Shown here: in pieces, positions 16,850 through 37,882 of the stretch | Numbering within the stretch: position 1 is the stretch's first letter | How the letters are laid out: every line of letters begins with the position of its first letter | DNA from: Kiritimatiellia bacterium | Lineage (GTDB): Bacteria > Verrucomicrobiota > Kiritimatiellia > RFP12 > UBA1067 | Length of the DNA: 39,781 nt | Direction of reading: 5' to 3' | Assembly: GCA_024405335.1 (NCBI GenBank) | Contig: JAKSOX010000001.1 | Span: 1 to 39,781, forward strand | The notes under the pieces: model-generated | What the model was told of the DNA's origin: nothing | The model's input: the letters and a program-made list of their open reading frames with translations, nothing else | Database searches by the model: none | Translations under genes and position numbers: made by a program

Positions 16850-17548
16850 ATGAAAAAAGGAAATTTGTTGAGTCACGTCGTGGACGCCTTGGGGTTGGTG
16901 AAATTGCCGGGGCGCAAGTCGGATCCGAAGCTGGGGGCGCTCGACCGCGGCGTTCTGGAAGTGGCGCTGATGATCGCCGCCTTGGACGGCGAGATCATGC
17001 CCGCCGAATATGAAACGTTCGAGCTGCTGGCCAAGCAGTGCCGCGGCTACACCCAGAAAAACGCGAAGCAGTGCCTGGACGGCGCGTTGCGCAAAGCCGG
17101 CTATCTCATGGCGGCGGCGCAGGTCGGGTGCTATCCGCCCGCCGAGCGCGTTTCGGCGTTCGTGGAGTTGGCGGACGAGGCGCTGCCGAACGGTTTCGCG
17201 TTCGGCTCCGAAGCCGATTTGCGCCGTGCGTTCGTGCTGTGGATCGCCATGGCCGTTTCCGACGGCGCGTTCAGCGAATTGGAGCGCTCGGCCGTGAAGG
17301 CGCTGCGCGACCATTTCGAGCGGGTGTCGCTCGATCGGCGGCAGACCGCCGAAGCGCGTTGCGCGGCAATGAATCCGGCGTTTCCGTTCGTGGTGGCGCC
17401 GAAAATCAACACGCGCAAGGTGACGCTGTTCGAGGAAGATTTCTTCAGCCGCGCCGAGGAAGTCGTCAAACAGCTGGGCGACGCGCGCACGCGCAAAGCG
17501 GCGCAGGACGCATTCGCCGAACTCGTCCAGACGGCCGTCGCCGGTTGA
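16850..17548 (+). CDS. Hypothetical protein with two TerB-like repeats
   Basis: The two repeats are MIAALDGEIMPAEYETFELL and IAMAVSDGAFSELERSAVKAL, which resemble the TerB/DjlA-N fold signature. The assignment is tentative. The start is taken at MKKGNLL. Confidence 0.4.
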   Translation: MKKGNLLSHVVDALGLVKLPGRKSDPKLGALDRGVLEVALMIAALDGEIMPAEYETFELLAKQCRGYTQKNAKQCLDGALRKAGYLMAAAQVGCYPPAERVSAFVELADEALPNGFAFGSEADLRRAFVLWIAMAVSDGAFSELERSAVKALRDHFERVSLDRRQTAEARCAAMNPAFPFVVAPKINTRKVTLFEEDFFSRAEEVVKQLGDARTRKAAQDAFAELVQTAVAG

Positions 17549-17574
17549 CCGACCTTTTGCAGGAGCAGTTTGCC

Positions 17575-24726: not shown

Positions 24727-26391
24727 ATGACCATTCGATCGTGTTTGGAGAAGTTTGCATCCGAGACGCCGGACGCCGTGGCGCTGAGGTCTTTTGGTTC
24801 CGACAAGACCTGGCACGAGCGCACGTGGAAGGCGTTTCTGGACGGCGTGCGTTCGACCGCGGACGCATACGGGCCCAAGTTCGGATTGAAGCCGCGCGAG
24901 GAAAACGTCGCTTTGATTCTCGGCAACGGCCCCGTCTGGATGGAGGCGTATCTGGCGCAGTCCGGCTGCGGCGTGAGCGTGGTGCCCCTCGACCCCAAGC
25001 TCCACAACGCGGAAGTCCAGTACATCCTCAAGGATTCCGGCGCCGTGGTGGTCACCACGGACAAGGCGCATCTGGAGATGATGCGGCAGATCGCCGCCGA
25101 TCTGCCCGATTTGCGCGCGGTGGTGATAGTGGACGGCGGCCAGCCGTCCTACGACGCCATCGGCCAGGTGCCCGTGTACGACTACGAGAACCTGCGCGAC
25201 CACGACGGCACGTGGTTCGCGCGCAACGTGGCGCGCGAAGACGACGTGGCGAGCGTCATCTACACCTCCGGCACCACGGGCAAGCCCAAGGGGGCGATGC
25301 TCACGCACGGGAACTTCATGGCGGACGTCGAAGGCGCGCTCGGCGCGTTCGGCGAGCGCGTGGACAGTTCCGACAGTCTGCTCATCATCCTGCCGCTGTT
25401 CCACGCGTTCTCCTTCCTCGCCAACTTCGTGCTGGGGCTCTACCGCGGCATGACGATGAGTTTCGTCAGGTCGCTCTACACGGTGGGCGAAGACGTGAAG
25501 CTCGTGCAGCCCACGCTGGTGATGGCGGTGCCGCTGCTGGCCGAGAAGGTGTACGACAAGATCGACGCGAAGCTCAAGGCCTCCAAGGCGGCGAAGTTCC
25601 TGATCGCGGCGGGGCTCAAGTCGATTGTCTACAAGAACGTCAAAAAGGGGCTGGGCGGCAAATTGCGCTTCATGATCGTGGGCGGAGCGCCGTGTCCGAA
25701 GCACGTGCTCGAGGGGTACAAGAAGCTCGGCATCACGCTGCTGGAGGGCTACGGGCTCACCGAATGTTCGCCGGTGGTGTCGGTGGCGGGGCCGAAGTGC
25801 GCGAAAATCGGCACGATCGGCCTCAAACTGTCCAACATCGAAGTGCGGCTGGCGGACAAAAACGAGCAGGGCATCGGCGAACTGCAGGTGAAGGGCCCGA
25901 TCACGATGAAGGGCTACTGGCACAACGACGAGGCCACGGCCGAGGCGTACGACGACGGCTGGCTCAAGACGGGCGATTTGGCGTCCATCGACGCGGAGAC
26001 GGGCCTCATCTCCATCCGCGGGCGCAAGAAGGCGCTGATCGTCAACCGCGAGGGCAAGAACATCTACCCGGAGGAAGTCGAGAACCGCATCGCCGGCGAC
26101 CCGCTGGTGGCGGATTGCGTGGTGGTGGGCTACACGACGGGCGGCATTCCTGGCGAGAAGGTCGGCTGCGTGGTGCACCCCGACGAGGACGTGCTCAAGG
26201 AGCTCGAGGGCGGTCAGCCGATGGCGTGGGAGGCCGTGGAGAAGCTCGTGCAGGCGCACGTGCACGCGCGGTGTTCGGAACTCGCCGACTACAAGCGCGT
26301 CCGGAAGGTGGTGGTGGTCAAGGAGCCGCTCGAACGCACGTCCATCCAAAAGGTGCGCCGCGTGGCCTACAAAGGAACGCTTGACGAATAG
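24727..26391 (+). CDS. AMP-dependent acyl-CoA synthetase (long-chain fatty acid-CoA ligase-like)
   Basis: Motifs present are YTSGTTGKPKGAMLTH, EGYGLTE, TGDL and the C-terminal K in IQKVRR. Confidence 0.8.
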   Translation: MTIRSCLEKFASETPDAVALRSFGSDKTWHERTWKAFLDGVRSTADAYGPKFGLKPREENVALILGNGPVWMEAYLAQSGCGVSVVPLDPKLHNAEVQYILKDSGAVVVTTDKAHLEMMRQIAADLPDLRAVVIVDGGQPSYDAIGQVPVYDYENLRDHDGTWFARNVAREDDVASVIYTSGTTGKPKGAMLTHGNFMADVEGALGAFGERVDSSDSLLIILPLFHAFSFLANFVLGLYRGMTMSFVRSLYTVGEDVKLVQPTLVMAVPLLAEKVYDKIDAKLKASKAAKFLIAAGLKSIVYKNVKKGLGGKLRFMIVGGAPCPKHVLEGYKKLGITLLEGYGLTECSPVVSVAGPKCAKIGTIGLKLSNIEVRLADKNEQGIGELQVKGPITMKGYWHNDEATAEAYDDGWLKTGDLASIDAETGLISIRGRKKALIVNREGKNIYPEEVENRIAGDPLVADCVVVGYTTGGIPGEKVGCVVHPDEDVLKELEGGQPMAWEAVEKLVQAHVHARCSELADYKRVRKVVVVKEPLERTSIQKVRRVAYKGTLDE

Positions 26392-26402
26392 CGCTTGCAC
26401 GT

Positions 26403-26410
26403 TGTACAAT
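26403..26410 (+). promoter_or_regulatory. Possible -10 element TTGTACAAT upstream of the gspF-like gene
   Basis: TACAAT at 26405-26410 is preceded by TG. This is a weaker match than the other sites. Confidence 0.3.
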
Positions 26411-26443
26411 TCTCGCATCTCTTGACAGCAGAGGAATCGCGGC

Positions 26444-27757
26444 ATGGCAAAATTTCAATACGTGGCGGTGGACGCGTCGGGCAACGAACAGCGCGGCACG
26501 CTGGAGGCGGCCAACCGCGGCGCGGCCATCGCGGCCGTCCGCGCGAACGGCCTGATGCCCAAGGCGCTCGGCGAAATCAAAGGCGAAGAGGCCGACGCGG
26601 CCGCGCAGCCCAAGGGCGGCGCGCGCGGCGCGAAGAAGCCGGCGGCGAAGGGCGGGCTCAACAAGGAAATCAAGCTCGGGCTGCCGAAGTTCATGAAGGG
26701 CGGCGTGAAGGCCAAGGACCGCACCACCTTCACGCGCCAGCTTGCGACGCTGGTGAACGCGGGCCTTCCGCTCATGCGCTGCATCGAGGTGCTGAAGAAG
26801 CAGAACCAGATTCCGTCGATGGCGGAATGCCTCGACGGCGTGTCCGAAAACATCCAGGGCGGCGGCACGTTTTCCGAGGCGCTCACGCAGTTCCCGAAGA
26901 TATTCGACAACCTGTACGTGAACATGGTGAAGGCCGGCGAAGCGGGCGGCGTGCTCGAAGTCGTGCTCCAGCGACTGGCGGAATTCGAGGAAAAGGCGCA
27001 GAAGATCAAGAACAAGGTGAAGGGCGCGATGATCTACCCGGCGGTGGTTCTCGTGGCGGCCATCGGCATCACGGCGTTTTTGCTCGTGGCGGTGATTCCG
27101 AAGTTCAAGCAGGTGTTCCAGGACATTCTGGGCGGCGAGCGTTTGCCGGCCATCACGGAATTCGTGATGGGATTTTCGGCGTTCGTGCAGCACAACGGCA
27201 TCCAGATCGGTCTGGGCGTGGCCGCGCTCGTGGTGCTCTACAAGATCGTGGACAAAACGCCCCAGGGCAATTTCGTGCTGGACGCGATCCGCCTGAAAGT
27301 CCCCGTGACCGGCACGTTGGTGAAGCGCACCGCCATTTCCCAGGTGACGCGCACGCTGGGCACGCTGCTGTCTTCCGGCGTGCCGATCCTGCAGGCGCTC
27401 ACGATCGTGCGCGACACGTCGTCCAACCGCATCATCGCGAAGGCCCTGCAGAGCGTGCACGACGCGGTGAAGGAAGGCGAATCGATGACGGACCCGCTGG
27501 CCGCGTCGGGCGTGTTCCCGCCGATGGTGGTGTCGATGGTGCAGGTCGGCGAGGAGACGGGCGCGCTGCCGGAAATGCTCACGCGCATCGCCAACAACTA
27601 CGACGACGAAGTGGACAACGCGGTGGCGGGCCTCACGGCGGCCATCGAGCCGGCGCTGATCATCTTCCTCGCCGTGATCGTGGGCACGATCGTGATCGCC
27701 ATGTTCCTGCCGATGATCAAGATCATTTCCAACGTGTCCGGCGCGGGCGCGATGTGA
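26444..27757 (+). CDS. Type II secretion / type IV pilus inner-membrane platform protein (GspF/PilC family)
   Basis: The N-terminus (FQYVAVDASGNEQRGTLEA) is typical of the family. It has two T2SSF-like repeats with TM segments, and FTRQLATLVNAGLPL. A Lys/Ala-rich linker follows the first ~45 aa. Confidence 0.85.
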   Translation: MAKFQYVAVDASGNEQRGTLEAANRGAAIAAVRANGLMPKALGEIKGEEADAAAQPKGGARGAKKPAAKGGLNKEIKLGLPKFMKGGVKAKDRTTFTRQLATLVNAGLPLMRCIEVLKKQNQIPSMAECLDGVSENIQGGGTFSEALTQFPKIFDNLYVNMVKAGEAGGVLEVVLQRLAEFEEKAQKIKNKVKGAMIYPAVVLVAAIGITAFLLVAVIPKFKQVFQDILGGERLPAITEFVMGFSAFVQHNGIQIGLGVAALVVLYKIVDKTPQGNFVLDAIRLKVPVTGTLVKRTAISQVTRTLGTLLSSGVPILQALTIVRDTSSNRIIAKALQSVHDAVKEGESMTDPLAASGVFPPMVVSMVQVGEETGALPEMLTRIANNYDDEVDNAVAGLTAAIEPALIIFLAVIVGTIVIAMFLPMIKIISNVSGAGAM

Positions 27758-27785
27758 CGGTTTGTTTGGACGGGAGAACGAACGG

Positions 27786-29093
27786 ATGAAGAAGGCGTTT
27801 ACTCTTCTGGAGCTGCTGGTGGTGGTGGTGATCATGGTTTCGCTGATGACCATGATCTACCGCCTCACGGGCATTTCCGGCGGCGTGAACAGCATCGCGG
27901 ACACGGTGTCGAGGATGCAGCGCCTCGAAAACGCGCTTTCCGGCTACATGGCGGCCTTCGGTTCGTATCCGCCGGTGAAGGTGCACGGGTACCAGGACAT
28001 CTACCGCGCCTGCACCCAGAACGGCGAGTACTACGGCGAACCGGACAAGGCGTTCAACCGCAAGTGGGGCGGCTACCCCTGGAAGGACATCATCATGCAG
28101 GTCACCACGGCCTGCAAGGCGCAGCCAGTGCGGATGGATTTCCCCTACGAGTCGGACCAGGGCGCCCACGTGATCGAAACGTCGGACAATATCATCGAAA
28201 AGCTCAACTCCGGCGTGTACGACGACGACATCGCGCAAGCCAAGGAGGAACTGGGCGAAGGGCTCGTGGCGCAGTATCTGCAGTCCGCGCTGGCGGGATT
28301 CGACATCGGCAACCCGTGGGGCCGGTTCACCGCCGCGTCGAAGGATCCCAACGTGGCCCCGGGCACGCGGCTTTGCGACATGGAGGACTGGAACGACATC
28401 AAGCTTTTCCGTTTCGGCCTGCTCGCGTTCCTGCTGCCGCGCTATCTCATCATGATGGGCTGCGCCTGCGGCGAGAACATCGAGGGCGACAACCCCATGA
28501 CGTTCGCCCAGTGGACGGCCAACAACGCGCTTCCCGCGCGCTATTGGCTTGACGGCACGCCGTACACCGACTGGAAGGAATTCCTCAACGACCTCGGCGG
28601 CGAGAACGGAACCGACAAGTCGAAACGCTGGCGCATCGAAATGATCCCCTCGCAGGCCGTGTGCCAGCGGTGGATACAGAACCTCGCCGGCGACATGGTG
28701 ATGGGCCGCCAACGCGTTCTCTACGGCGTGGAAATCGGCAACGGCATGAGCACGCTGCTGATCGAACGCTGGATGGACGTGTACGACCAGGCGTTTTCCC
28801 CGGGCCAGAGCGGCACTGGCGTGATCGGCGACCAGTACGTGCTCGACAACTACACGATCACGGACGGTTTCGGCCACGACTTCTACTACTTTTCGCAACC
28901 GCCGTACACCAGCTACCGCCTGTGGAGCGGCGGTCCGGGCGGCGCGGCGTACCAGGACAAGGAAAGGGCGGGAGCCACGTTCCCGCCGTGGATGTCGCTC
29001 GACGACCTCCAGGACGAAGACATCCCCGCCGAAACGCAACGAAAGGTCGCCGCCGCGTGGATGGCGGACGACGTCGTCCATCTGAGCCACTGA
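27786..29093 (+). CDS. Large pseudopilin-like protein (435 aa) with a prepilin-type N-terminal methylation motif
   Basis: The N-terminus is MKKA|FTLLELLVVVVIM (Glu at +5, Ala at -1). A degenerate GspG-type C-terminal signature is present: DGFGHDFYYFS...LWSGGPGG. Confidence 0.7.
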   Translation: MKKAFTLLELLVVVVIMVSLMTMIYRLTGISGGVNSIADTVSRMQRLENALSGYMAAFGSYPPVKVHGYQDIYRACTQNGEYYGEPDKAFNRKWGGYPWKDIIMQVTTACKAQPVRMDFPYESDQGAHVIETSDNIIEKLNSGVYDDDIAQAKEELGEGLVAQYLQSALAGFDIGNPWGRFTAASKDPNVAPGTRLCDMEDWNDIKLFRFGLLAFLLPRYLIMMGCACGENIEGDNPMTFAQWTANNALPARYWLDGTPYTDWKEFLNDLGGENGTDKSKRWRIEMIPSQAVCQRWIQNLAGDMVMGRQRVLYGVEIGNGMSTLLIERWMDVYDQAFSPGQSGTGVIGDQYVLDNYTITDGFGHDFYYFSQPPYTSYRLWSGGPGGAAYQDKERAGATFPPWMSLDDLQDEDIPAETQRKVAAAWMADDVVHLSH

Positions 29094-29104
29094 AAGGTTT
29101 TGCC

Positions 29105-29731
29105 ATGCCACGCGCCGAACGACACGGATTCACGCTTCTCGAACTGCTCGTCACGATCACGATCCTGGCGGTGCTGATGGGCGTCGCGCTGAACTCCTTC
29201 AGCAAGGTGTCGCGCAGCGGGCAGCGCGCCAAGGACCAGGAACTCGTTTCCGAAGTGGCGACGTCGCTCATCTACCTCATCCAGGAAAAGAAGGTGTGGC
29301 CGACGGCCATCCTGAAAGGCGTGGCGGAAGGGGAGGGCGTCATCAACGCCGAGGTCGCCGCCGCTTTCGCGAAGGAAGGCCTCATGAACATCATTTCCGA
29401 CTCGGACGCCGACGGCGTCCTGCGCACGATCGGCCGCGACCGGCTGGGGCTCGTCGATTCCTACGGCGCGGCCGTGCTGAAGCGCAACAAACGCGCCGGG
29501 GAAGACGCCATCGTGCCGAGCGGCGGATCGATCCACGACCATCTCATCCGCTACGCCATCGACGACGACGACGACGGCATCACCGAGGCGACGGTGGGCG
29601 GACGGAAGGTGCGCGTGCGCGCGGCCGCCATCGCGTGGGGGTGCGGCCCCGACGGCAAAGTGGAGGATCCGAACCTCGCCGGCCGCACGGACGACGTGTT
29701 CAGCTGGCGTTTGACGCAGGAGGTGCGTTGA
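29105..29731 (+). CDS. Pseudopilin-like protein (208 aa)
   Basis: The N-terminus is ERHG|FTLLELLVTITILAVL. The C-terminal end is AWGCGPDGK...DDVFSW. Confidence 0.7.
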   Translation: MPRAERHGFTLLELLVTITILAVLMGVALNSFSKVSRSGQRAKDQELVSEVATSLIYLIQEKKVWPTAILKGVAEGEGVINAEVAAAFAKEGLMNIISDSDADGVLRTIGRDRLGLVDSYGAAVLKRNKRAGEDAIVPSGGSIHDHLIRYAIDDDDDGITEATVGGRKVRVRAAAIAWGCGPDGKVEDPNLAGRTDDVFSWRLTQEVR

Positions 29732-30360
29732 TGCGCCGGAACGGTTTCACCATTCTTGAATTGCTGATCGCGATCGCGATTCTCGGCATTCTCGTGGGGC
29801 TGGTGGCCGAAACGGCCGCCGGCGCCTACTGGATGGCCCGCAAGCGCCGCATGGCGGCCATCGAGCAGTCGCTCCAGACGGCCATCGAAACCTACAACCT
29901 CCGCAACGGCAAATGGCCCGGAGTGCTGGAGAACTACGCGAAAACCGCGTCCGACAAGCCGTATTACGTTCTTTCCGACGACCAGGCCGACAGCATCTTC
30001 GGCCAGTTGTTGCGCGAATCGTGCCGAAAAGGAGCGAATCCCTACCTCGACCCGCAGTCGATGTTCGTGGCGCGCAAGTCGATCGCCTTCGATTCCTGGA
30101 AGCGGAAAGGCGGCATGGATTTCAACGTCGCCATGCGCCAGAAGATTCCCGTGTCGCAGCTGACGGTCGGCTATCCGACGTTCGGCAAGGCGCATTTCCA
30201 CCGCTTCACGATCATCTACAAGCCCCGCACGGACATGGTGCAGGTGACGCATTGCTGCCAGAAGTGCTGCGTCACGAGCGACACCGAAGCCGGCATGTGC
30301 GTCGAGGAAAAGGGCGCGGGTATCCAATCGAAATGCCCGAACTGGTGCCACGACTATTGA
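29731..30360 (+). CDS. Pseudopilin-like protein (209 aa) with a Cys-rich C-terminal tail
   Basis: The N-terminus is RRNG|FTILELLIAIAILG. The tail is HCCQKCCVTSDTEAGMCVEEKGAGIQSKCPNWCHDY. Its ATG shares one nt with the upstream TGA. Confidence 0.7.
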   Translation: MRRNGFTILELLIAIAILGILVGLVAETAAGAYWMARKRRMAAIEQSLQTAIETYNLRNGKWPGVLENYAKTASDKPYYVLSDDQADSIFGQLLRESCRKGANPYLDPQSMFVARKSIAFDSWKRKGGMDFNVAMRQKIPVSQLTVGYPTFGKAHFHRFTIIYKPRTDMVQVTHCCQKCCVTSDTEAGMCVEEKGAGIQSKCPNWCHDY

Positions 30361-30370
30361 CGGAACGAAC

Positions 30371-31273
30371 GTGAAACAGGCCTTCACATTGCTGGAACTG
30401 CTTACGGTCATCGCCATCACGGCGATGATGGCAACCATTTCCATGGGCGCCTACCGCGGCGTCGTGCGCGGCATGGAGGACCGCGGCGTGATCGCGTCCG
30501 CCACGCTCGTCGTCTCCGCGGCCCAGAACCGCGCCCGCGCCGACCACGCCTTGACGGCCGTCTTTTTCTACAACGTGATTTCGCAGGAGGGCGACGACTC
30601 GCCCGAAAACAAAACGGATTACATGGCCCACGGCGAAGCCGTCGCGGTGCGCGGCATCGGGCGCATCACGCGCGTGTTCGGGAACTATCTGGCGGACGAG
30701 TGCAACGACCTCGAGCAGGAGTACGCGATTCTGGATTCCAAGGATCCGGTGGTGAAGAACCCGAAAACCAAGGCGTCCGGCCGCAACGCCACGGGCGCGG
30801 CGCAGATGATGCGGCTTTTCAAGTTGACGTCCGAACGGGACGCGCAGGGCAGCCGGAAGCTTCCCTGTTCCAAAGTGCTCATGAACGCCATCGTGGGCTC
30901 CGATTTGTTCCCCATGGAAGATTTCTATTTCGAGCCGCCCGTGGACGCGGACGGCAATCCCGTCCGGGAAATTCCGGGCGTTTGCTTCAAGGTCGCGGAC
31001 GCGAACGGCGTGTCCTGGCAACTGGGCGACGTGTACGCGGTGTCGTTCAAGGACACGGTGCTGCCCAACGGCTACGTGTTCGGTTCCAAATCCGACTTGC
31101 CGTCGTCGCTCGACGATCCGGTCAAGTTCGTGAAATCGATCGTGTTCGATCCCGACGCGACGGGCGCCGCGCTCGAGGGATCCGTAGACGTCCACTCCAT
31201 CCGTGCCGTCGAAGGCAAGCGCGTCGAGTTGCGCAAAGTGGGAACTTCGTCCACAACCACGGGGAATCTGTGA
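30371..31273 (+). CDS. Pseudopilin-like protein (300 aa, GspH-like position)
   Basis: It has a GTG start and the N-terminus MKQA|FTLLELLTVIAITAMM (Ala at -1). Confidence 0.65.
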   Translation: MKQAFTLLELLTVIAITAMMATISMGAYRGVVRGMEDRGVIASATLVVSAAQNRARADHALTAVFFYNVISQEGDDSPENKTDYMAHGEAVAVRGIGRITRVFGNYLADECNDLEQEYAILDSKDPVVKNPKTKASGRNATGAAQMMRLFKLTSERDAQGSRKLPCSKVLMNAIVGSDLFPMEDFYFEPPVDADGNPVREIPGVCFKVADANGVSWQLGDVYAVSFKDTVLPNGYVFGSKSDLPSSLDDPVKFVKSIVFDPDATGAALEGSVDVHSIRAVEGKRVELRKVGTSSTTTGNL

Positions 31274-31274
31274 C

Positions 31275-31907
31275 ATGGCGCGCGCGACCTCCAAATCCGG
31301 TTTCTCGCTCACCGAGGTGACGCTGGCGCTCGGCATCGTGGCCGTGGCCATTTCCGGGCTGCTGTCGCTCTACACGTATGCGTTCCGCGAAGGTTCGATG
31401 GGCCGCGAGGACACGGCCGGCGCCGCTTTGGCCGAGCGCGTGATCAATCCGCTCGCGTTCGCGCTGTCCTCCACGAACATTCCCTGGAGCGTCTGGACCA
31501 AAATCGGCTCGCCGGCGGAAATCCGCGACCAAGACCTGAAGGTGGTGCCCGTGTGCCGTCTGTGGCCGGCCGCGGGATGGCGCGCGTACATGGACGCGTC
31601 CTCCACGGTCGGCGCCGGCGTCTACGTCACGGGTTCGCCGCTGCGCAAGGCGCAGGACGCCTACCGCAAGCTGGTGGACCTCCTCGTGCCGTACCTCGAG
31701 CCGGACGTGCGGAGGTTCGTCCAGGGCGTGCCGACGCCCGGCGAAGAAGGTGGCATGGTGTACTCGCTCGTCATTTCCCGCGACACCGAGTTTTCGCCGG
31801 TCGTGAACGTGGCGGTCCGCTGCGTGCGCGCCAACCGTTTCGTGTATCTGATCAGCCAGCCGATGTATTTCACGGCCGTCCATTTCCAGGGGGATCCAAA
31901 CCGATGA
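31275..31907 (+). CDS. Pseudopilin-like protein (210 aa, GspI-like N-terminus)
   Basis: The N-terminus is SKSG|FSLTEVTLALGIVAVAISG. It starts 1 nt after the upstream stop. Confidence 0.65.
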   Translation: MARATSKSGFSLTEVTLALGIVAVAISGLLSLYTYAFREGSMGREDTAGAALAERVINPLAFALSSTNIPWSVWTKIGSPAEIRDQDLKVVPVCRLWPAAGWRAYMDASSTVGAGVYVTGSPLRKAQDAYRKLVDLLVPYLEPDVRRFVQGVPTPGEEGGMVYSLVISRDTEFSPVVNVAVRCVRANRFVYLISQPMYFTAVHFQGDPNR

Positions 31908-32356
31908 AACGCGGCTTTTCCCTGATCGAACTCATGGTGGCGTCGCTGCTGCTGTCCATGATCGTGGTGCTGCTTTCGACCATGATGAACCAGAGCGCCA
32001 TCTCCTGGCGCGCCGGCAGCGCGAGCGTGATCGAGCTCGGTTCGGCCCAGCAGAAGATTGTGAACCACCAGGTCGAGGCGGACAACCTGCTGCCGCGGCT
32101 TTACGGCGAAAGACCCCTGATGACGGTGTCTCCGTGGGACGTCCGCGGCAACGTCCGCGCTCGCGCCTTCGGCGTTCCGCAATGGGTGAAATCGTCGGTG
32201 AACCGTCCGGACTCGGACGCCTGGCAGGTGAGCGGCAAGGGCGGCAAATCGGGCCGGGCGGCGGGATGCCTCGTGGGCGTGGTTTCCGCCGGGCCCGACC
32301 GCAAGTTCGACACGGAAGACGACATCTCGTCGTGGATGGGAGACGTGGTGGAATGA
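31904..32356 (+). CDS. Pseudopilin-like protein (150 aa, GspJ-like N-terminus)
   Basis: The N-terminus is MKRG|FSLIELMVASLLLS. The C-terminal end is VSAGPDRKFDTEDDISSW. It has an ATGA overlap with the upstream gene. Confidence 0.7.
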   Translation: MKRGFSLIELMVASLLLSMIVVLLSTMMNQSAISWRAGSASVIELGSAQQKIVNHQVEADNLLPRLYGERPLMTVSPWDVRGNVRARAFGVPQWVKSSVNRPDSDAWQVSGKGGKSGRAAGCLVGVVSAGPDRKFDTEDDISSWMGDVVE

Positions 32357-32823
32357 GCCGGCGACGCGGATTCACGCTCTTGGAACTGTTGACGGTGATC
32401 GCCATGCTCACCGTGCTGACGGGCGCGCTTTCGAGCGCCGTGGCGTCGGCGCGCCGGCGCACGCGCATCGTCCGCGCCGACGCGGAAGTGCACGAAATTT
32501 CGAACGCCATCCTCGCCTACGAAAACATTTCCGAAAACAAGTCCCTGAACGGACACGCGATGAGCGACCAGGAGGCGACGGAAAAGAACCTGGGCTTCAT
32601 TTTGGGCGACGGCGGCAAAACGGCCGGCGGCGAAAAGATACCGGTGCTGTTCAACGGCGCGGTTTCGTCGGACGGCAAACTGCACGATCCCTGGGGCACG
32701 CCCTACCACGTGTCCATCGAGGTCACCCAGGAATCGCCTGAGGAAGACGAAGTCGGCAAGGAACTTTCCACCATTCTCTATCTGCCCAATTTCTACCGGT
32801 TGGGCGAATTGGAGCGGCAATGA
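32353..32823 (+). CDS. GspG-like major pseudopilin candidate (156 aa)
   Basis: The N-terminus is RRRG|FTLLELLTVIAMLTVL. The motif HDPWGTPYHV (DPWGTPY at 32686-32706) matches the T2SS GspG signature DPWGxPY. It has an ATGA overlap with the upstream gene. Confidence 0.75.
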   Translation: MSRRRGFTLLELLTVIAMLTVLTGALSSAVASARRRTRIVRADAEVHEISNAILAYENISENKSLNGHAMSDQEATEKNLGFILGDGGKTAGGEKIPVLFNGAVSSDGKLHDPWGTPYHVSIEVTQESPEEDEVGKELSTILYLPNFYRLGELERQ

Positions 32824-35800
32824 ACAAACGCGGATCGGCACTTCTCATCGTCCTCGGCGTGATGGCGTTCGTCACGGCGTCCGTCGTTTCGTTCGCCGTG
32901 TACATGCGCGAAAGCCGTTTGCCTTCCACCTTCTTCCGCCGCGCCATGGCGGAACGCCAGTTCGTGAAAGCCGCGTTGGCGTACGCCATCGACGAGATCG
33001 ACGCGGCCGTCGGCGACGACCCGTTCCCCGGCGTGGGCAAGAACGTCTCCTTGACGCGCGACGGTTCGCTTTGGGGGACGGACGTCTGGAAAAGCCGCGT
33101 GCTCATGCCGTTCGGCACGTGCGACTGGTCGAACACGGTGTCGGTGCTCACGCTGGAAGGGCTCGGCTATCTGCCGCCGGCCATCGTGAACGAGGTCCGC
33201 TGGGGCGCGCGCTGCACCACGAACGCCGTGTGGCGCGGCTTCAACTACGACTTGGGGCGCTACGCTTTCGTGGCGGTGAACGTATCCGACTTCCTGGACG
33301 TGAACAAGCTGCACGCGAACACGAACCGGTCCGTGGGCGCGCCCATTTCGCTGGGGGCCCTCCTGTCCCGCGAAGGATCGTTCGACGATCCGGAAATTCC
33401 GGCCAGCGATTTCGACTACTTCCTTTCGCGCCGCGGCAACAACGATCCGATGGTGGCGTTCACGTCGATGATGGACTACAATCTCGCGTGCAATTTCGCT
33501 CAGGACGCCAAAATCAAGCGCGGTTCGCCGTTCGGCAACATGATCCGGAACTGGACGAGTTCGTCCGACTCCTGGTACGCTGGAATGACGTCCAACGACG
33601 TGGTCCGCCAGGCGTTCATCACCGACACCTGGTTCCCGAAGACGAATTCGACGTGGCGCGTCGATTTGGACAATCCCGCCCACCAGCCGTTCGCCCTGTG
33701 CGGCTCGTGGTTTCCTGGCGACGCCCCGGGCAAAACGTCGTTGTCCCACTGCTACAACATCGACTACAAGCGCCAGCCGTGGGCGGGCACGTATTTCGAC
33801 ACGCTGCCCATCATCGCCACCGGCATGTTGTGCGATTATCTGGACAGCGACAGCGTGCCGTTGTCGCTGGCCATGCCGTGCACGGAAATCGCGCCCATGG
33901 TCGTGGGCATCGAAGCCGGCGGCATTTTCAATTTCCGCCTGGGCGTGAAGAAGACGCCGGTCGAAACGGGTCCCGCCAAGCAGGACGGCGAGGAGCCGGA
34001 CGAAATCAACGAATACACGCACACGCTGTGTTTCGCGGTCGATCCCGAAATCAACGTCACTTGCGCGTTTCCGTTCCGCCGCGTGGCGAACCGCCTGAAG
34101 AAGAAGTCGTTCTCCGTGCAGTGCGTGGCGCGCCTTTTCTTCACGGATTCCAGCGGCGCCACCTGGACCGATGGCGGGTTGCGCATCCCGTTCAACAATC
34201 CCGACGCGAACCGGTTGTGCCTGCCCGAGGCGCCGTTCACGTGGCCGACGCGCGACATGGCCGGCCGCGGCGGCGAAAACCCGCCCCCGTGCATCACGTT
34301 CGTTTCCGACAAGCAGACCGTCGACGCGCCGGACTGCTCCACGGACGAAGAGGACGTCGTGCTCGACACCCTGTCCTTTTCGTTCTCGCCCTCGCCGTAC
34401 ACCACGGGCATGTCGGCGAACGGCGACCGCGGCCTGGAACTGGCGAAATACCAGTACAACGAGACGTCCGGCAAATACGTGTGGCCCCTGGACGCCGACG
34501 GCAACCTTACGGACGAGGTCTACCAAAACGCCTTCCGTCTGTACAAGAGCGACTGGACGTTCGCCAAAATCGGCGACGGCGGCACGTTCCGTCCGTCGTT
34601 GGCCGTGTGGGTGCGCATTTCCGACAGCGACAACGCCACCGTGGACCTCGTGCCCGCGCACGTCCACTACGATTCGATCAACAACCACAACGACCACACG
34701 GACGTCGACATGCCCGACGTGTGGCGCACCTGCGCCAACAACATCGGCGACCGGCCGCTGCTCCGCTTCTTCACGTCGGGCGTCGATCTCAAGTTCGACC
34801 GCGCGTCGCTGCTGACGCTCGCCAAACAGACTGGCACGCTGAACGCCACGTTCGACCAGAGCAGCTACTACTGCTGCGACCCGCGCTACAACTACGCGCC
34901 CGAGGACTGGGTGGCTTTCGCGCCGGACAACGACCCGCAGAAGGATCCCGCGGAGCGTTGGCTGGACGAGGCGGTGCATCCCGTGATGAACGACGGCCTC
35001 CAGGGACGCGACCGCGACGTGTTCATGTTCGTGTCCAACCAGGGCTATCTGCAAAGTCCCTACGAATTGATGTTCATTCCGCGTTTGAAACCCTTCCCCG
35101 GAAACGAGGGCGACCCCGAGTGGGGCGAGTTCATGATGCGCAGAAACTTCGACGGCGTGGTCCGCACGTCTCCAGGCGCCCTCGCCGACGCCGACGTCAT
35201 GTGGCGCAGCTATCTGCCGCCGGCGCTCGGCGGCGAGGACGATTTCGGCCTGCTGCGGATGCACGAATGCGCCTCCGAAGAGGCGTTCCGCGTCAACCCC
35301 TACGGCGACAGCCGGTTCGTCGCGTTGGCGTTGGCCAACACGCCGTACGACTGGTTCGCCGCCGGCACGAACGCGCAAAACCTGTGCTGCTCCTCCGAGC
35401 GGACCGAAAAGCGGACGCAGTTCGAGAAACTTGTCAACGGTCTGCAGCGTTCGTTCTGCACCAAGAGCATGGACGACGCGTCGCGCTGGACGTTCGAGGA
35501 AACCCAGGCGCTCGGCCAGCGTTTTTCCGAGTTCTTCCGCCGTTCGGTGGCTGACGCTTCCATCGGTTCGTGGCTGGCGGCCTACGACAGTCTGGACTGG
35601 GGCGGAAAAGACCAGAGTTCCGGCGCTTCGCAGGCGTTGAACCCCGGCGACGATCCTTTGGAGGCGTTCGGCGACGATTTGACGTTCGCCGACCGCAAAT
35701 TCCTGTACGCGTTCTGGCGCAACTGTTTCGTGAACCGCCAGCAGCTGTTCCTCGTGTTCGTGCGCGCGGAAATGAACACCATCAGCATCAACGACAAAAG

Positions 35801-36017
35801 CCGCCGCGGCATCCGCGCCGTGGCGCTGGTGTGGCGCGATCCCGCGATTCCCACGCCCGCGCGCAACGGCGGCGCCGGCGGCGGCTACAAGGACATGGCG
35901 GATTTGTATCTGCTCAAGAACGGCGGCGAAGGGTCCCGGCCCGATTCCTGGCGCACGTGGGACCGTTCCGGACCGCCGCACCGCACGCGCGTGCTTTTCT
36001 ACCACCAGTTCGAATAG
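32820..36017 (+). CDS. Giant GspK-like minor pseudopilin / tip protein (1065 aa)
   Basis: The N-terminus MNKRGSALLIVLGVMAFVTASVV resembles the GspK leader and lacks Phe+1 and Glu+5, as GspK proteins do. It has an ATGA overlap with the GspG-like gene. I recognise no motifs in the rest of the protein. Confidence 0.6.
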   Translation: MNKRGSALLIVLGVMAFVTASVVSFAVYMRESRLPSTFFRRAMAERQFVKAALAYAIDEIDAAVGDDPFPGVGKNVSLTRDGSLWGTDVWKSRVLMPFGTCDWSNTVSVLTLEGLGYLPPAIVNEVRWGARCTTNAVWRGFNYDLGRYAFVAVNVSDFLDVNKLHANTNRSVGAPISLGALLSREGSFDDPEIPASDFDYFLSRRGNNDPMVAFTSMMDYNLACNFAQDAKIKRGSPFGNMIRNWTSSSDSWYAGMTSNDVVRQAFITDTWFPKTNSTWRVDLDNPAHQPFALCGSWFPGDAPGKTSLSHCYNIDYKRQPWAGTYFDTLPIIATGMLCDYLDSDSVPLSLAMPCTEIAPMVVGIEAGGIFNFRLGVKKTPVETGPAKQDGEEPDEINEYTHTLCFAVDPEINVTCAFPFRRVANRLKKKSFSVQCVARLFFTDSSGATWTDGGLRIPFNNPDANRLCLPEAPFTWPTRDMAGRGGENPPPCITFVSDKQTVDAPDCSTDEEDVVLDTLSFSFSPSPYTTGMSANGDRGLELAKYQYNETSGKYVWPLDADGNLTDEVYQNAFRLYKSDWTFAKIGDGGTFRPSLAVWVRISDSDNATVDLVPAHVHYDSINNHNDHTDVDMPDVWRTCANNIGDRPLLRFFTSGVDLKFDRASLLTLAKQTGTLNATFDQSSYYCCDPRYNYAPEDWVAFAPDNDPQKDPAERWLDEAVHPVMNDGLQGRDRDVFMFVSNQGYLQSPYELMFIPRLKPFPGNEGDPEWGEFMMRRNFDGVVRTSPGALADADVMWRSYLPPALGGEDDFGLLRMHECASEEAFRVNPYGDSRFVALALANTPYDWFAAGTNAQNLCCSSERTEKRTQFEKLVNGLQRSFCTKSMDDASRWTFEETQALGQRFSEFFRRSVADASIGSWLAAYDSLDWGGKDQSSGASQALNPGDDPLEAFGDDLTFADRKFLYAFWRNCFVNRQQLFLVFVRAEMNTISINDKSRRGIRAVALVWRDPAIPTPARNGGAGGGYKDMADLYLLKNGGEGSRPDSWRTWDRSGPPHRTRVLFYHQFE

Positions 36018-36077
36018 CGCGGCCGCCGTCGGCAATTCGGTTTTCACGTCACACGGACACAGGGGAACGTTCAAAAG

Positions 36078-37034
36078 ATGAAGCGAGTTTTGTTGGGAGT
36101 TGGATTGCTGGCCGCCGGTTTTTCGGGAGCGGGCACGCTGGACGGCATCGCCGCGAAGGTCGACAGGGACGTGATCACGGTGGGCGACGTGATGAACGAA
36201 ATCCGCCGCCACCCGGAAGCGCGCGACCGCATGGGCGCCGGAAACGAGTCGGAAATGCAGGCGCTGTACCGCACGGCGCTCGACAACCTCGTCGACCGCA
36301 AGCTCATACTCAAAGCCGCGGCCGACCGCAAGCTGGACATGCAGGAGTGGATCGTGGACAACCGCATCCGCGAAATCGTGCACGATTCGTTCGACGGCGA
36401 CATGAACAAGCTCACCGCCGAACTCGCCGCGTCGAAAGTGCCGATGACCGAATGGCGGAACAGGATCCGCGAGGACATGATCGTGAGCGCGATGCGCTAC
36501 CAGATGGTGGAAAACTCGATTCGCGTGTCGCCCCTGCAGCTCAAGAAGGAATACGAAGAACATCCCGAGCGTTACGTGAAAGGCGCCAAGGCCGACGTGC
36601 GGGTGATATTGCTCAAGCCGTCGGACGGCAAAGACGCTCCGTCGGTAAGCACGCGCGCCGACGAAATCCTGGAGCGTTTGGCGAAGGGAGAGGATTTCGC
36701 CGAACTGGCGAAAAAGTTTTCCGCCGATTCGCACGCGAAAGACGGCGGATTGTGGTCGGGCGTGAATCCCGCGGACACGTTCCGCGAAGAGATTTGCGCG
36801 GTGATCGCAAAGCTCAAAGTCGGCGAAACGTCCAAGCTCATCGATCTCGACGGCTGGGGATTCATCGTCCGCAAAGAGCGCGCCACGGCGGAAGCCAAAA
36901 TGACGCTCGCGGACGCCTACGACGAAGTCGAGAAGAACGTCAAGGCCGAATTGGCCCGCGATGCCTACTCCGCGTGGGTGAGGCGTTTGCGCGCGGATGC
37001 GTTCGTGAAGCTTTATCCGGCTCCCGCGGAGTGA
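36078..37034 (+). CDS. Periplasmic peptidyl-prolyl isomerase/chaperone (SurA/PpiD-like, parvulin domain)
   Basis: It has a signal peptide. The SurA-N-like region is IAAKVDRDVITVGDV. The parvulin domain motifs are FAELAKKFSADSHAKDGGLWSGV...WGFIV. Confidence 0.75.
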   Translation: MKRVLLGVGLLAAGFSGAGTLDGIAAKVDRDVITVGDVMNEIRRHPEARDRMGAGNESEMQALYRTALDNLVDRKLILKAAADRKLDMQEWIVDNRIREIVHDSFDGDMNKLTAELAASKVPMTEWRNRIREDMIVSAMRYQMVENSIRVSPLQLKKEYEEHPERYVKGAKADVRVILLKPSDGKDAPSVSTRADEILERLAKGEDFAELAKKFSADSHAKDGGLWSGVNPADTFREEICAVIAKLKVGETSKLIDLDGWGFIVRKERATAEAKMTLADAYDEVEKNVKAELARDAYSAWVRRLRADAFVKLYPAPAE

Positions 37035-37051
37035 CGACCGGCCGCGCGTTT

Positions 37052-37882
37052 ATGAATCTCACTTCGCCGTCGCAGGTCAAGGACTGGTGCATCGCGAACG
37101 GGTTCCACCCGAACAAGGTGCTCGGCCAGAATTTTCTCATCGACAAAAACGTCCTCGACGCGATCGTCGACGCGGCGGAGCTCGCCGCGTTCGGGCCGTC
37201 GCCGCGCGTGCTTGAAATCGGCCCCGGCCTGGGCGTGCTCACGGAAGGGCTGCTGGCGCGCGGCGCGCGGGTGTCGGCGATCGAAAAGGATCCCGTGCTC
37301 GCGGCGCGACTCGCCGAATCGCTGGGGAATCCCGCGGACCTCGCCGTGACGGCGGGCGACGCGCTCGACGTCGTCAAGGCAGGAGGTTGCGACGGTTTCG
37401 CGGCGATGGTTTCGAATCTGCCGTATCAGGCGGGGACGCGGATACTGCTCGAATTGATCCGCCGCGTCGACGCGGGCGCGGCCGTTCCCGAAACGATCGT
37501 GGTGCTCGTGCAGACGGAAGTGGCCGAGCGTCTCGCCGCGGGTCCGGGATCGAAGACGCGCGGTCTTGCGGGCGTGTGGGCGCAGCTCGACTACTCCGTG
37601 TCGATCGTGCGGAAAGTTTCGGCCGCGTGCTTTTGGCCGCGCCCGGAAATCGGATCGTCCGTGGTGAAGCTCGTGCGCCACCACGCGAACGACGCGCTGG
37701 CCTCGGACGCGCGCAAGGCGTTCCGCGCGCTGTCGAAGCAGGCGTTCGAGCATCGCCGCAAGCAGCTGGGATCCATATTCAAAGGGCGAATCGAGTCATC
37801 GGCGCGGGCCGAAGAACTGTCGAATTCCGATTGGATTTCGCTTGCCAACGCATGGAGCAAAGAGTATACTTCCCTTTCGTAA
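37052..37882 (+). CDS. rsmA: 16S rRNA (adenine1518/1519-N6)-dimethyltransferase RsmA/KsgA
   Basis: Motifs present are KVLGQNFLID, the SAM-binding motif VLEIGPGLGVLT, and SNLPYQ. Confidence 0.9.
   Translation: MNLTSPSQVKDWCIANGFHPNKVLGQNFLIDKNVLDAIVDAAELAAFGPSPRVLEIGPGLGVLTEGLLARGARVSAIEKDPVLAARLAESLGNPADLAVTAGDALDVVKAGGCDGFAAMVSNLPYQAGTRILLELIRRVDAGAAVPETIVVLVQTEVAERLAAGPGSKTRGLAGVWAQLDYSVSIVRKVSAACFWPRPEIGSSVVKLVRHHANDALASDARKAFRALSKQAFEHRRKQLGSIFKGRIESSARAEELSNSDWISLANAWSKEYTSLS

Follow-up and report, generated by a model that had tools for sequence, protein, structure and literature searches.

A nine-gene operon encoding a GspF-type platform protein, seven prepilin-type subunits and a very large terminal protein with a GspK-like leader was found on a contig of a Kiritimatiellae MAG. 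On balance, the operon probably represents the platform and pseudopilus half of the T2SS of this lineage, with its partner genes located elsewhere. The machine is of a known and not a new kind, and the present variant of it is unstudied. The operon is real and is widely conserved among gut Kiritimatiellae. These glycan-degrading bacteria occur widely in the guts of humans, ruminants and horses, with hardly any members in culture, and the operon constitutes a conserved filament module in them.

Organisation of the operon

The window analysed in this study is the entire 39.8-kb contig, and since the contig is complete at this length the operon was not cut by assembly. An initial annotation, made from the DNA sequence alone, had proposed a T2SS-like platform and pseudopilus variant with elaborated subunits from a PVC-group bacterium, and the Kiritimatiellae origin of the contig agrees with the proposed source. 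The operon and its candidate promoter are arranged as follows.

26381-26410, + strand: sigma-70-like promoter candidate (TTGACG, 18-nt spacer, TACAAT), 34 nt 5' of gspF
26444-27757, + strand: gspF/pilC-type inner-membrane platform gene, 437 aa
27786-29093, + strand: p2, modular prepilin-type subunit in the GspG position, 435 aa
29105-29731, + strand: p3, prepilin-type pseudopilin, 208 aa
29731-30360, + strand: p4, prepilin-type pseudopilin, 209 aa, 8 Cys
30371-31273, + strand: p5, GspH/FimU-like minor pseudopilin, 300 aa, GTG start
31275-31907, + strand: p6, GspI/PilV-like minor pseudopilin, 210 aa
31904-32356, + strand: p7, minor pseudopilin in the GspJ position, 150 aa
32353-32823, + strand: p8, GspG-like pseudopilin, candidate major subunit, 156 aa
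32820-36017, + strand: K, GspK-like leader without Glu5, proposed cap or tip, 1065 aa

The intergenic spacing from gspF to K, taken from the coordinates, was +28, +11, -1, +10, +1, -4, -4 and -4 nt, exactly the gaps and overlaps given by the initial annotation, and all nine ORFs were intact. The promoter candidate agrees with the consensus at 10 of 12 positions, and no other + strand site occurs across positions 26000-37200; the number of promoter-like sites was not above shuffle expectation, so this site is regarded as a candidate only. The upstream neighbour is an AMP-binding acyl-CoA synthetase and the downstream neighbour a SurA-like PPIase, as had been described. The remaining genes of the window are housekeeping genes and glycoside hydrolases, with 26 kb of unrelated housekeeping genes lying 5' of gspF.

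The GC content of the operon equals that of its flanks, and a horizontally acquired island was rejected as a reading. A tRNA-SeC call within p5 was dropped, Rfam support being absent. In GenBank, seven of the nine genes are already named as T2SS or prepilin proteins; p3 carries the name 'GspH family', and p8 is entered as a 'hypothetical' protein of 147 aa, whereas the ORF read here encodes 156 aa, a difference of 9 aa. The proteins of the MAG carry the accessions MCQ2388102-109.

Conservation in related genomes

The nine-gene block was compared with 84 related loci from species-level genomes of gut and rumen Kiritimatiellae, a comparison that the initial annotation had suggested. The eight pilin-like genes were collinear in nearly all loci (72-81 of 84; 78 of 84 for p3 and 78 of 84 for p4), and gspF lay immediately 5' of the block in 45 of 84, being missing from that place in about 15. 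Relatives' contigs of 81-165 kb showed the same layout. One relative is GCA_964386385.1, with contig CAYLRN010000007.1. Reduced paralogous cassettes were also present (locus L082), and clustering of the flanks of the related loci gave a small ORF as the sole conserved neighbour.

The platform gene

The product of gspF contains two T2SSF domains (Pfam, E 2.3e-66) and is a GspF-type platform at the family level. It scored 401.6 bits against TIGR02120 (GspF), just short of the equivalog cutoff of 424, and 385-392 bits against PilC models with a cutoff of 700; by these scores it falls far less short of the GspF equivalog model than of the PilC models. PilC is the name used for the platform in several sources. 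Identity among gspF orthologues is 73-95% over the clade, as would suit a core housekeeping role. Among relatives, identity was 30-38% for K and the minor subunits compared with 73-79% for gspF; K and the minor subunits evolve much faster.

The prepilin-type subunits

All of p2 to p8 scored above the TIGR02532 cutoff of 16.3 bits (range 17.3-31.3 bits), which places them among type IV pilins or pseudopilins. A six-frame regex scan of the 39.8-kb window found exactly seven prepilin motifs, every one inside the operon, a clustering that is far from a chance pattern, and Glu5 was present in 100% of orthologues in the five pilin families tested (p2, p5, p6, p7 and p8). The profile and the scan both agree with the earlier description of seven prepilin motifs with Glu+5 and an eighth, GspK-like leader, K having Ile at +5. 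The subunits had also been described as oversized as a group; this stands for p2 (435 aa) and K (1065 aa), and the other six, at 150-300 aa, are of ordinary size. The proposed variant with elaborated subunits is therefore supported with two such subunits.

p2 matched N_methyl/TIGR02532 and, weakly, T2SSG over residues 349-390, and many of its orthologues have a precomputed PF08334 match. Its AF2 model (pTM 0.83) predicts an alpha1 helix at residues 7-58, a mostly helical insertion of ~240 aa at about residues 88-300 and C-terminal strands at residues 310-381. On this model p2 is a modular type IV pilin, made up of alpha1, the helical insertion and C-terminal strands with weak T2SSG similarity. 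A lack of pilin folds, named by the initial annotation as a finding that would speak against it, was not encountered in p2, the sole motif-bearing subunit modelled, which has a long alpha1 helix. Foldseek gave no significant match of the p2 model to the PDB, EpsG appearing only at E about 6. The protein contains 13 Trp residues.

The score against TIGR02532 was 31.3 bits for p3 and 27.7 bits for p4. The C-terminal sequence of p3, GCGPDGK...TDDVFSW, reads like a GspG C-terminus; the N-terminus of p4 scored 33.6 bits against TIGR01710, and an AGGAGG motif is found 5' of p4. Orthologues of p5 matched TIGR02596 (27/34), GspH (22/34), ComGD (29/34) and XpsH (13/34), and those of p6 matched PilV (31/32, best E 9e-10), TIGR02598 (29/32) and GspI (7/32), in both cases below the curated cutoffs. 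For p7, orthologues matched TIGR02599 (28/32) and GspG (26/32); the protein carries a GspG-type C-terminal motif, GPD..DDI..W, and its profile positions 134-155 weakly matched the C-termini of GspG structures (E 0.012-0.76).

The sequence DPWGTPY is unique to p8 within the operon, as the initial annotation had observed for the DPWGxPY signature. In the p8 family D112, P113 and W114 are invariant within the motif DPW(G)xPY. The protein scored 31 bits against TIGR01710 (cutoff 88.85), 16 of 32 orthologues gave weak Pfam T2SSG matches, and the alpha1 region alone matched solved pilins. The profiles of p2, p5, p6, p7 and p8 together matched PDB entries in the alpha1 region alone, except for the weak C-terminal GspG match of p7, and hhalign between the paralogues aligned N-terminal helices alone.

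GspG-like features are distributed over the paralogues p2, p3, p7 and p8. The last five genes, whose orthologue sets gave matches that were weak yet specific to a family, appear to map onto the order H-I-J-(G')-K, with p5 as H, p6 as I/PilV, p7 as J and p8 as G, followed by K; these H, I, J, G and K assignments lie below the curated cutoffs, as seen for the window proteins, and concern mostly N-terminal segments.

The giant terminal protein K

The N-terminus of K is MNKRG/SALLI. The K family conserves Gly-1, and 37 of 37 sequences have Ile at +5, giving a leader without Glu5 like that of GspK. The GspK model NF037980 (T2SS_GspK) matched 22 of 38 K-family members; in the two members examined the alignment was confined to positions 2-54 and 2-60 of the 307-position profile, and scores were 16.5 bits at most, where the cutoff is 130. 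K itself had no match in Pfam at E <= 10, whether searched as the whole protein or as N- and C-terminal fragments, nor in NCBIfam, and the K profile had none among PDB sequences.

The AF2 model of K (pTM 0.80) has a strand-rich centre at residues 360-660 and, near the C-terminus, strands at 975-985, 998-1006 and 1056-1063. Foldseek searches of this model against the PDB and BFVD returned nothing at E < 0.06, and GspK was not among the matches; a GspK globular fold was not detected in K by Pfam T2SSK, NF037980, PDB sequence or Foldseek searches. Beta-sandwich matches of the model (complement, fibre knob) were not accepted, having E > 0.06. The models of K and p2 are both confident, and neither has a significant match among solved structures.

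At E <= 1e-3 the K family has 1243 clusters, and at the stricter E <= 1e-30 it still has at least 473 clusters at 50% identity. K contains 29 Trp residues and two invariant acidic/aromatic motifs, DPRxNxAPEDW and RDxD...QGYLQSxYE; its invariant Asp, Glu and aromatic residues lie at D609, D618, D687-E695 and D731-E749. The leader, together with the conservation of segments at both termini, leads us to infer that K contains a pilin module.

Partner genes

As the initial annotation had reported, GspE, a secretin, GspC/L/M and a prepilin peptidase were not found in the 39.8-kb window, and the same holds in cis in the relatives. The ATPase motif G[PS]TGSGK[ST]T was absent from the 84 related loci, and a looser pattern was absent from their 1.47 Mb and from the window. 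The secretin C-domain motif and the A24 peptidase motif were likewise absent from the related loci (1.47 Mb), and neither gspE nor gspD was present within 10 kb 5' of gspF in loci L085 and L086. The loci examined contained neither a retraction ATPase nor ComEC or ComEA, and PilB/PilT, PilMNOPQ and a PilY1-type domain were not found.

Probable function of the operon

The function had been called not deducible from known systems. It can be argued further than that, and secretion appears to be the most likely function, as yet unproven. Several features suggest that the operon is the platform and pseudopilus half of a T2SS. The gene order seems to follow the canonical gspF-G-H-I-J-K (F, G-like, ..., H-, I- and J-like, K-like last). 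Likely GspG hallmarks are the DPWGxPY motif of p8, the T2SSG matches in p2 and p8 orthologues and the C-terminal motif of p7, and the last subunit alone is without Glu5 with Gly-1 kept, which is the GspK signature and goes with the NF037980 matches in 22 of 38 K-family members. The GC content shared with the flanks, the collinearity of the block in relatives and the conservation of gspF favour the same assignment, as do the scores of gspF against the GspF and PilC models and the T2SS or prepilin names that GenBank gives to seven of the nine genes. In the cultured relative Kiritimatiella glycovorans, a T2SS and numerous sulfatases with signal peptides have been reported (PMC5148204).

Other features count against this assignment. 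GspE, GspD, GspC/L/M and the peptidase are absent from the contig and from the 1.47 Mb of related loci, and gspF is not beside the block in about 15 relatives. The H, I, J, G and K assignments fall short of the curated cutoffs and draw mostly on N-terminal segments, and p6 is a better match to the T4aP protein PilV than to GspI. With eight subunits, two of them 435 and 1065 aa long, the set is far more complex than any characterised pseudopilus, and a tip of ~115 kDa resembles PilY1, an adhesin of the cell surface, more than it does GspK, which is periplasmic.

If the operon does form half of a T2SS, the seven Glu5 prepilins would enter the inner membrane, where a peptidase encoded elsewhere would cut after the conserved Gly or Ala. 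K, without Glu5, would then assemble with the H-like p5, the I/PilV-like p6 and the J-like p7 into the tip complex that primes the filament on GspF. Below this tip the GspG-like p8, which is small and conserved, would polymerise, and the GspG-related p2, p3 and p4 may join it. Polymerisation would be driven by a GspE-type ATPase, encoded elsewhere, and the short filament would push folded exoproteins out through a secretin also encoded elsewhere. The exported cargo in this lineage might be glycoside hydrolases and sulfatases.

A possible but clearly less probable explanation is that the operon makes a surface type IV pilus-like filament with K as its tip adhesin, a GspK/PilX-type module being fused to a large effector module. 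K would then act like PilY1, CofB or ComZ in adhesion to gut mucus, plant particles or other cells. Consistent with this, the size of K is near that of PilY1, p6 orthologues match T4aP PilV in 31 of 32 cases, the platform is called PilC by several sources, and K and the minor subunits evolve faster than gspF, as is expected of exposed proteins; the predicted strand-rich centre of K (residues 360-660) may be added to these, and modular pilins are widespread and presumed to be ligand-binders at the tip (PMC8179133). However, PilB/PilT, PilMNOPQ and a PilY1-type domain were not found, K has no Pfam match at E <= 10, a clear T4aP-type major pilin is absent, gspF is nearer to the GspF model than to the PilC models, and the GspG motifs and the F-then-G...K order indicate a T2SS. 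The contig itself raises another doubt, as it belongs to a MAG and lacks the partner genes: the block might be the tail of a canonical gsp operon broken up in assembly, or a non-functional cluster in decay. This is very improbable and was refuted by the contig context, the contigs of relatives and collinearity: 26 kb of unrelated housekeeping genes precede gspF, the 81-165 kb contigs of relatives share the layout and have neither gspE nor gspD in the 10 kb of sequence shown 5' of gspF, and the intact ORFs (9/9) form a set that is collinear across the 84 loci and has invariant motifs. The initial annotation had named such a split operon among the findings that would refute it, and the data speak against one.

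It is unlikely that the operon instead encodes a retractile filament that captures or imports polymers (sulfated glycans or DNA) in place of TonB/SusCD-type uptake, with p2 and K as aromatic-rich ligand binders. The Trp-rich composition of p2 (13) and K (29) would suit such a role, the invariant acidic/aromatic motifs of K may be compatible with a binding site, p5 orthologues match ComGD in 29 of 34 cases, and K. glycovorans is reported to be without TonB-dependent uptake despite living on polymers (PMC5148204). Against it, carbohydrate-binding, lectin and DNA-binding domains were undetected by Pfam and Foldseek, no locus contained a retraction ATPase, ComEC or ComEA, and the reading is purely inferential. 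Similarly improbable is the proposal that the eight-subunit set is a dedicated PVC surface or trans-envelope filament, in which the K cap and the p2 shaft, having new ligand-binding folds, capture sulfated or host glycans. Such a filament, if real, would serve glycan import or tethered degradation, supply the polymer acquisition that these bacteria, being without TonB/SusCD, otherwise lack, and be a new functional class of type IV filament and not a secretion piston.

The operon indicates that a T2SS-like pseudopilus can carry eight subunits with a ~115 kDa cap from a large family without a Pfam or solved-structure match. If it is simply a T2SS, it still defines the organisation and annotation of that system across the whole class. 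If K is a ligand-binding tip, it would extend the known range of modular pilins and of cell-surface functions in PVC bacteria.

Comparison with known systems

No characterised T2SS or T4P subtype was matched by the gene set, in line with the initial annotation. In the T2SS pseudopilus, GspF is the platform, GspG the major subunit and GspH-I-J-K the minor subunits, with GspK-I-J forming the tip complex. The present operon shares with this pseudopilus (ETEC, Klebsiella Pul) the order of a platform gene, a G-like gene and minor subunits of which the last is without Glu5, together with the DPWGxPY and GspG-type C-terminal motifs and Glu5 leaders on all other subunits. It differs in having eight subunits instead of five, in the division of GspG-like features among several paralogues, and in its first subunit of 435 aa with a ~240-aa helical insertion. 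K is 1065 aa long, compared with about 330 aa for GspK, and shows neither a T2SSK domain nor a GspK structural match; none of gspC, D, E, L, M and O is linked to the operon, and the window proteins all score below the curated cutoffs of the Gsp equivalog models.

The Verru_Chthon cassette is a four-gene, pilin-like, uncharacterised cassette from Verrucomicrobiota, a sister phylum in the PVC group (TIGR02596 D, TIGR02598 B, TIGR02599 C and TIGR02600 A), whose gene order we take, from the family names, to be D-B-C-A. Orthologues of p5, p6 and p7 match D (27/34), B (29/32) and C (28/32), and both sets end in a very large protein, K here and protein A in the cassette. In contrast, the window proteins reached none of the subfamily cutoffs for D, B, C and A (D 18.8 against 70 bits, B 19.5 against 51.4 and C 15.7 against 256.5), TIGR02600 touches only one of 38 K-family members (E 0.0018), and the present operon has four extra pilin genes and usually gspF too. 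A literature search found no paper on the operon or on the Verru_Chthon cassette. The comparison offers a plausible identity for these cassettes as an H-I-J-K-type tip set.

The T4aP proteins FimU-PilV-PilW-PilX-PilY1 share with the operon a series of minor pilins followed by a presumed tip protein of ~1000-1100 aa, and p6 resembles PilV. PilY1 is about 1100 aa long and, unlike K with its pilin-type leader, is not a pilin; the T4aP machinery genes are not nearby, and a PilY1 beta-propeller was not detected in K (none by Pfam, none significant by Foldseek).

The modular type IV pilins (S. sanguinis PilB/PilC, ETEC CofB, Thermus ComZ and GspK) combine a pilin module with a large extra module, as p2 and K appear to do, although neither known domains nor solved structures include a match to the extra module of p2 or of K. 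Such pilins, with modules grafted on or inserted, are common and are presumed to be located at the filament tip as ligand binders (PMC8179133). The extra module of GspK and of ComZ is inserted inside the pilin fold (Raynaud et al. 2021, PMC8179133), an arrangement in keeping with the alpha1-insertion-strands layout of p2 and with the conservation of K in its N- and C-terminal segments. The most extreme multi-domain pilin of that survey has 860 aa with 12 repeat copies (PMC8179133), a length that K exceeds at 1065 aa.

Organisation of the operon

The operon occupies window positions 26444-36017 (+), and ORF listing with translation bore out the nine same-strand genes proposed in the initial annotation: gspF, seven prepilin-type genes (p2-p8) and K, which encodes a GspK-like subunit lacking Glu5.

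Genes of the operon (window coordinates, strand, product)
26444-27757, +, gspF, platform protein, 437 aa
27786-29093, +, p2, prepilin-type, 435 aa
29105-29731, +, p3, prepilin-type, 208 aa
29731-30360, +, p4, prepilin-type, 209 aa
30371-31273, +, p5, prepilin-type, 300 aa, GTG start
31275-31907, +, p6, prepilin-type, 210 aa
31904-32356, +, p7, prepilin-type, 150 aa
32353-32823, +, p8, prepilin-type, 156 aa
32820-36017, +, K, GspK-like subunit, 1065 aa

The computed intergenic distances (+28, +11, -1, +10, +1, -4, -4 and -4 nt) were the same as those first given, and GC content was even across the operon and its flanks. The K product shows 100% identity to a hypothetical protein of a Kiritimatiellae MAG, and the window makes up a whole contig of that MAG. 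The subunits had been described as oversized, which held for p2 and K only, the other six being ordinary in size. GenBank names gspF as T2SS F family, p3, p4 and p5 as GspH family, p2, p6 and p7 as prepilin-type, and p8 and K as hypothetical. Its p8 entry (MJ138_00140) is 147 aa long, 9 aa short of the ORF at 32353-32823; this call presumably drops part of the prepilin leader, and a misannotated start site seems to conceal a GspG-like subunit here. A tRNA-SeC predicted by ARAGORN within the p5 coding region (31015-31104, +) had no Rfam support, neither tRNA nor tRNA-Sec being found there at the gathering score, and probably reflects a spurious call in GC-rich coding sequence.

Platform protein and prepilin signatures

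Two T2SSF domains were detected in GspF by Pfam (E 2e-66), and 427 of its residues aligned to 400 positions of the GspF model TIGR02120. A Lys/Ala/Gly-rich stretch of low complexity (…EEADAAAQPKGGARGAKKPAAKGG…, residues about 45-75) follows approximately the first 45 residues of GspF. The prepilin-domain model TIGR02532 was passed by all seven of p2-p8, and a six-frame regular-expression search of the 39.8-kb window recovered exactly the seven prepilin motifs claimed, all within the operon. In each of the five pilin families examined (p2, p5, p6, p7 and p8), every member carried Glu5. The N-terminus of K is MNKRG|SALLI, and the GspK-like leader ascribed to it is a family trait, since K relatives keep Gly-1 and position +5 is always Ile. 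DPWGTPY, the single GspG signature reported, was present in p8 only.

Neighbouring and partner genes

Pfam scans identified upstream a HipA-like kinase, FolD, trigger factor, ClpP, ClpX, MTHFR and TatD, together with a beta-lactamase-fold protein, two GH-like proteins, an alpha-2-macroglobulin, PBP1C and an acyl-CoA synthetase; a SurA-like PPIase, an RRM protein and a metallophosphoesterase lie downstream. The following features were also observed:

600-1490, HipA_C kinase-like gene at the contig start
1731-3725, 664-aa ORF without a Pfam match
17038-24652, +, gene pair: 1844-aa bacterial alpha-2-macroglobulin with an N-terminal LysM domain, and the adjoining PBP1C-type bifunctional penicillin-binding protein
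36078-37034, SurA-like PPIase gene 3' of the operon, syntenic in 9 related loci

Alpha-2-macroglobulin and PBP1C are a known pairing; as listed, the two ORFs share about 137 nt, so the PBP1C start probably lies further downstream. An RsmA/KsgA-type gene follows the SurA-like gene where called genes were seen (related loci L003 and L004).

As had been claimed, no ATPase, secretin, GspC/L/M or peptidase was found in Pfam scans of the window genes. No GspE-type Walker A motif occurred in 84 related loci, and searches of 1.47 Mb of loci, and of the window as well, with looser Walker A, secretin C-domain and A24 peptidase motifs gave nothing relevant, the only Walker-like matches being an ABC transporter and ClpX. 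Two more gspF-centred loci, on 165-kb and 81-kb contigs, showed housekeeping genes across 10 kb upstream. Any ATPase and secretin genes of these genomes are thus unlinked to the block throughout the loci covered.

Conservation across relatives

When the K-family alignment was scanned against 185,579 species-representative genomes, 185 stretches encoding a relative were confirmed, of which the best 80 were fetched; nearly all came from gut or rumen Kiritimatiellae-type MAGs. With a threshold of E <= 1e-3 the family comprises 1243 clusters (50% identity); E <= 1e-30 leaves 473. By phmmer synteny, the p2-to-K block was collinear wherever sequence was available (72-81 of 84 loci). Neighbours other than gspF were not conserved. 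GspF identity was 73-95% across the clade, mean pairwise identity of the pilin families was 36-47%, and K was 30-36% identical to its relatives, two close ones being higher (54% and 71%).

gspF lay directly upstream of the block in 45 of these loci and was lacking from about 15 with at least 3 kb of upstream sequence (L014, L016, L019, L024, L026, L028, L030-L033, L042, L044, L046, L049 and L079); in L042 a helicase, a Na/H exchanger and TrmE are found there instead. An eight-gene pilin block thus exists without gspF, indicating that platform and filament genes are separable modules.

Further variants were observed. L082:8230-12664 (+) is a reduced paralogous cassette of three genes (p2-like, 352 aa; p5-like, 239 aa; K-like, 893 aa) without gspF and the other pilins; its MAG, Horse_feces187, also contains the full block (L017), so the full operon can be accompanied by alternative short pseudopilin cassettes. 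The nearest relatives carry an extra 306-aa prepilin-type gene between K and the SurA-like gene (L003:13726-14646, L004:12136-13056 and loci close to these), which is absent from the window. In 21 loci K is directly followed by a short ORF (about 180 aa) without a Pfam match (for example L001:13173-13703, L086:19997-20545 and L034:14202-14882); it may be a tenth operon member in some lineages and is not present in the window.

Subunit identities and predicted structures

None of the window's proteins reached the curated cutoffs of the Gsp equivalogs or Verru_Chthon subfamilies. Whole orthologue sets scanned against NCBIfam gave consistent, family-specific patterns, all sub-threshold.

Matches of orthologue sets (sub-threshold; p8 against Pfam, weak)
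p5: Verru_Chthon D 27/34, GspH 22/34, ComGD 29/34
p6: PilV 31/32, Verru_Chthon B 29/32, GspI 7/32
p7: Verru_Chthon C 28/32, GspG 26/32
p8: T2SSG 16/32
K: GspK 22/38, Verru_Chthon A 1/38

T2SSG (PF08334) was also carried by many p2 orthologues. In two K members examined, the GspK match covered positions 2-54 and 2-60 of 307, and K failed the GspK fold and domain test. Pilin profiles matched solved structures in the alpha1 region and nowhere else, except for a weak match of the p7 C-terminus to GspG C-termini.

The K model (pTM 0.80, mean pLDDT 76.7) has two N-terminal helices (6-32 and 36-64) and a conserved C-terminal sheet, with a strand-rich centre between them; Foldseek returned no significant match in PDB or BFVD. 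The p2 model (pTM 0.83, mean pLDDT 83) has an alpha1 helix of 52 residues, then an insertion of about 240 aa that is mostly helical, and C-terminal strands coinciding in position with the weak T2SSG match; Foldseek gave nothing significant, EpsG appearing at E about 6 only. As modelled, p2 and K appear to fit the modular-pilin concept (PMC8179133), and their extra modules are new.

Discussion

The family matches and the Glu5 pattern suggest an F-to-K-like reading, in which gspF would be followed by a G-like giant (p2), extra pseudopilins p3 and p4, H-, I- and J-like subunits, a small G-like subunit (p8) and a K-like giant. Read this way, the gene order is an expanded canonical gspF-to-gspK order. 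We somewhat favour the view that the operon is the platform and pseudopilus half of this lineage's T2SS, a system reported in the cultured relative K. glycovorans (PMC5148204). In this scheme K would join the H-, I- and J-like subunits in the priming tip, and p8 would likely be the major subunit. Genes elsewhere would supply the energising ATPase, secretin and peptidase, and the many glycan-degrading enzymes that these bacteria export would serve as cargo.

An adhesive pilus on the cell surface, its tip adhesin being K, is possible and distinctly less probable. Less probable again is a filament for capture and uptake of glycans or DNA, an attractive idea given that K. glycovorans is reported to be without TonB-type uptake systems (PMC5148204), but the searches turned up neither a binding domain nor a retraction ATPase. 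That the operon is an artefact or relic is barely credible, being refuted by the conservation data, which likewise speak against the distal part of a canonical gsp operon split by assembly; conservation and synteny across loci mark the block as a stable, vertically inherited module, neither assembly fragment nor relic. There is a small chance that a new filament function is hidden in the operon we favour as half of a T2SS. The finding of the operon itself is solid, and a literature search found no publication on it.

The operon would work like a T2SS pseudopilus or a T4aP minor-pilin tip set. The short cassette beside a full operon in one MAG is akin to the coexistence of multi-copy Verru_Chthon cassettes, and it is these uncharacterised cassettes that the operon most resembles at the sequence level.
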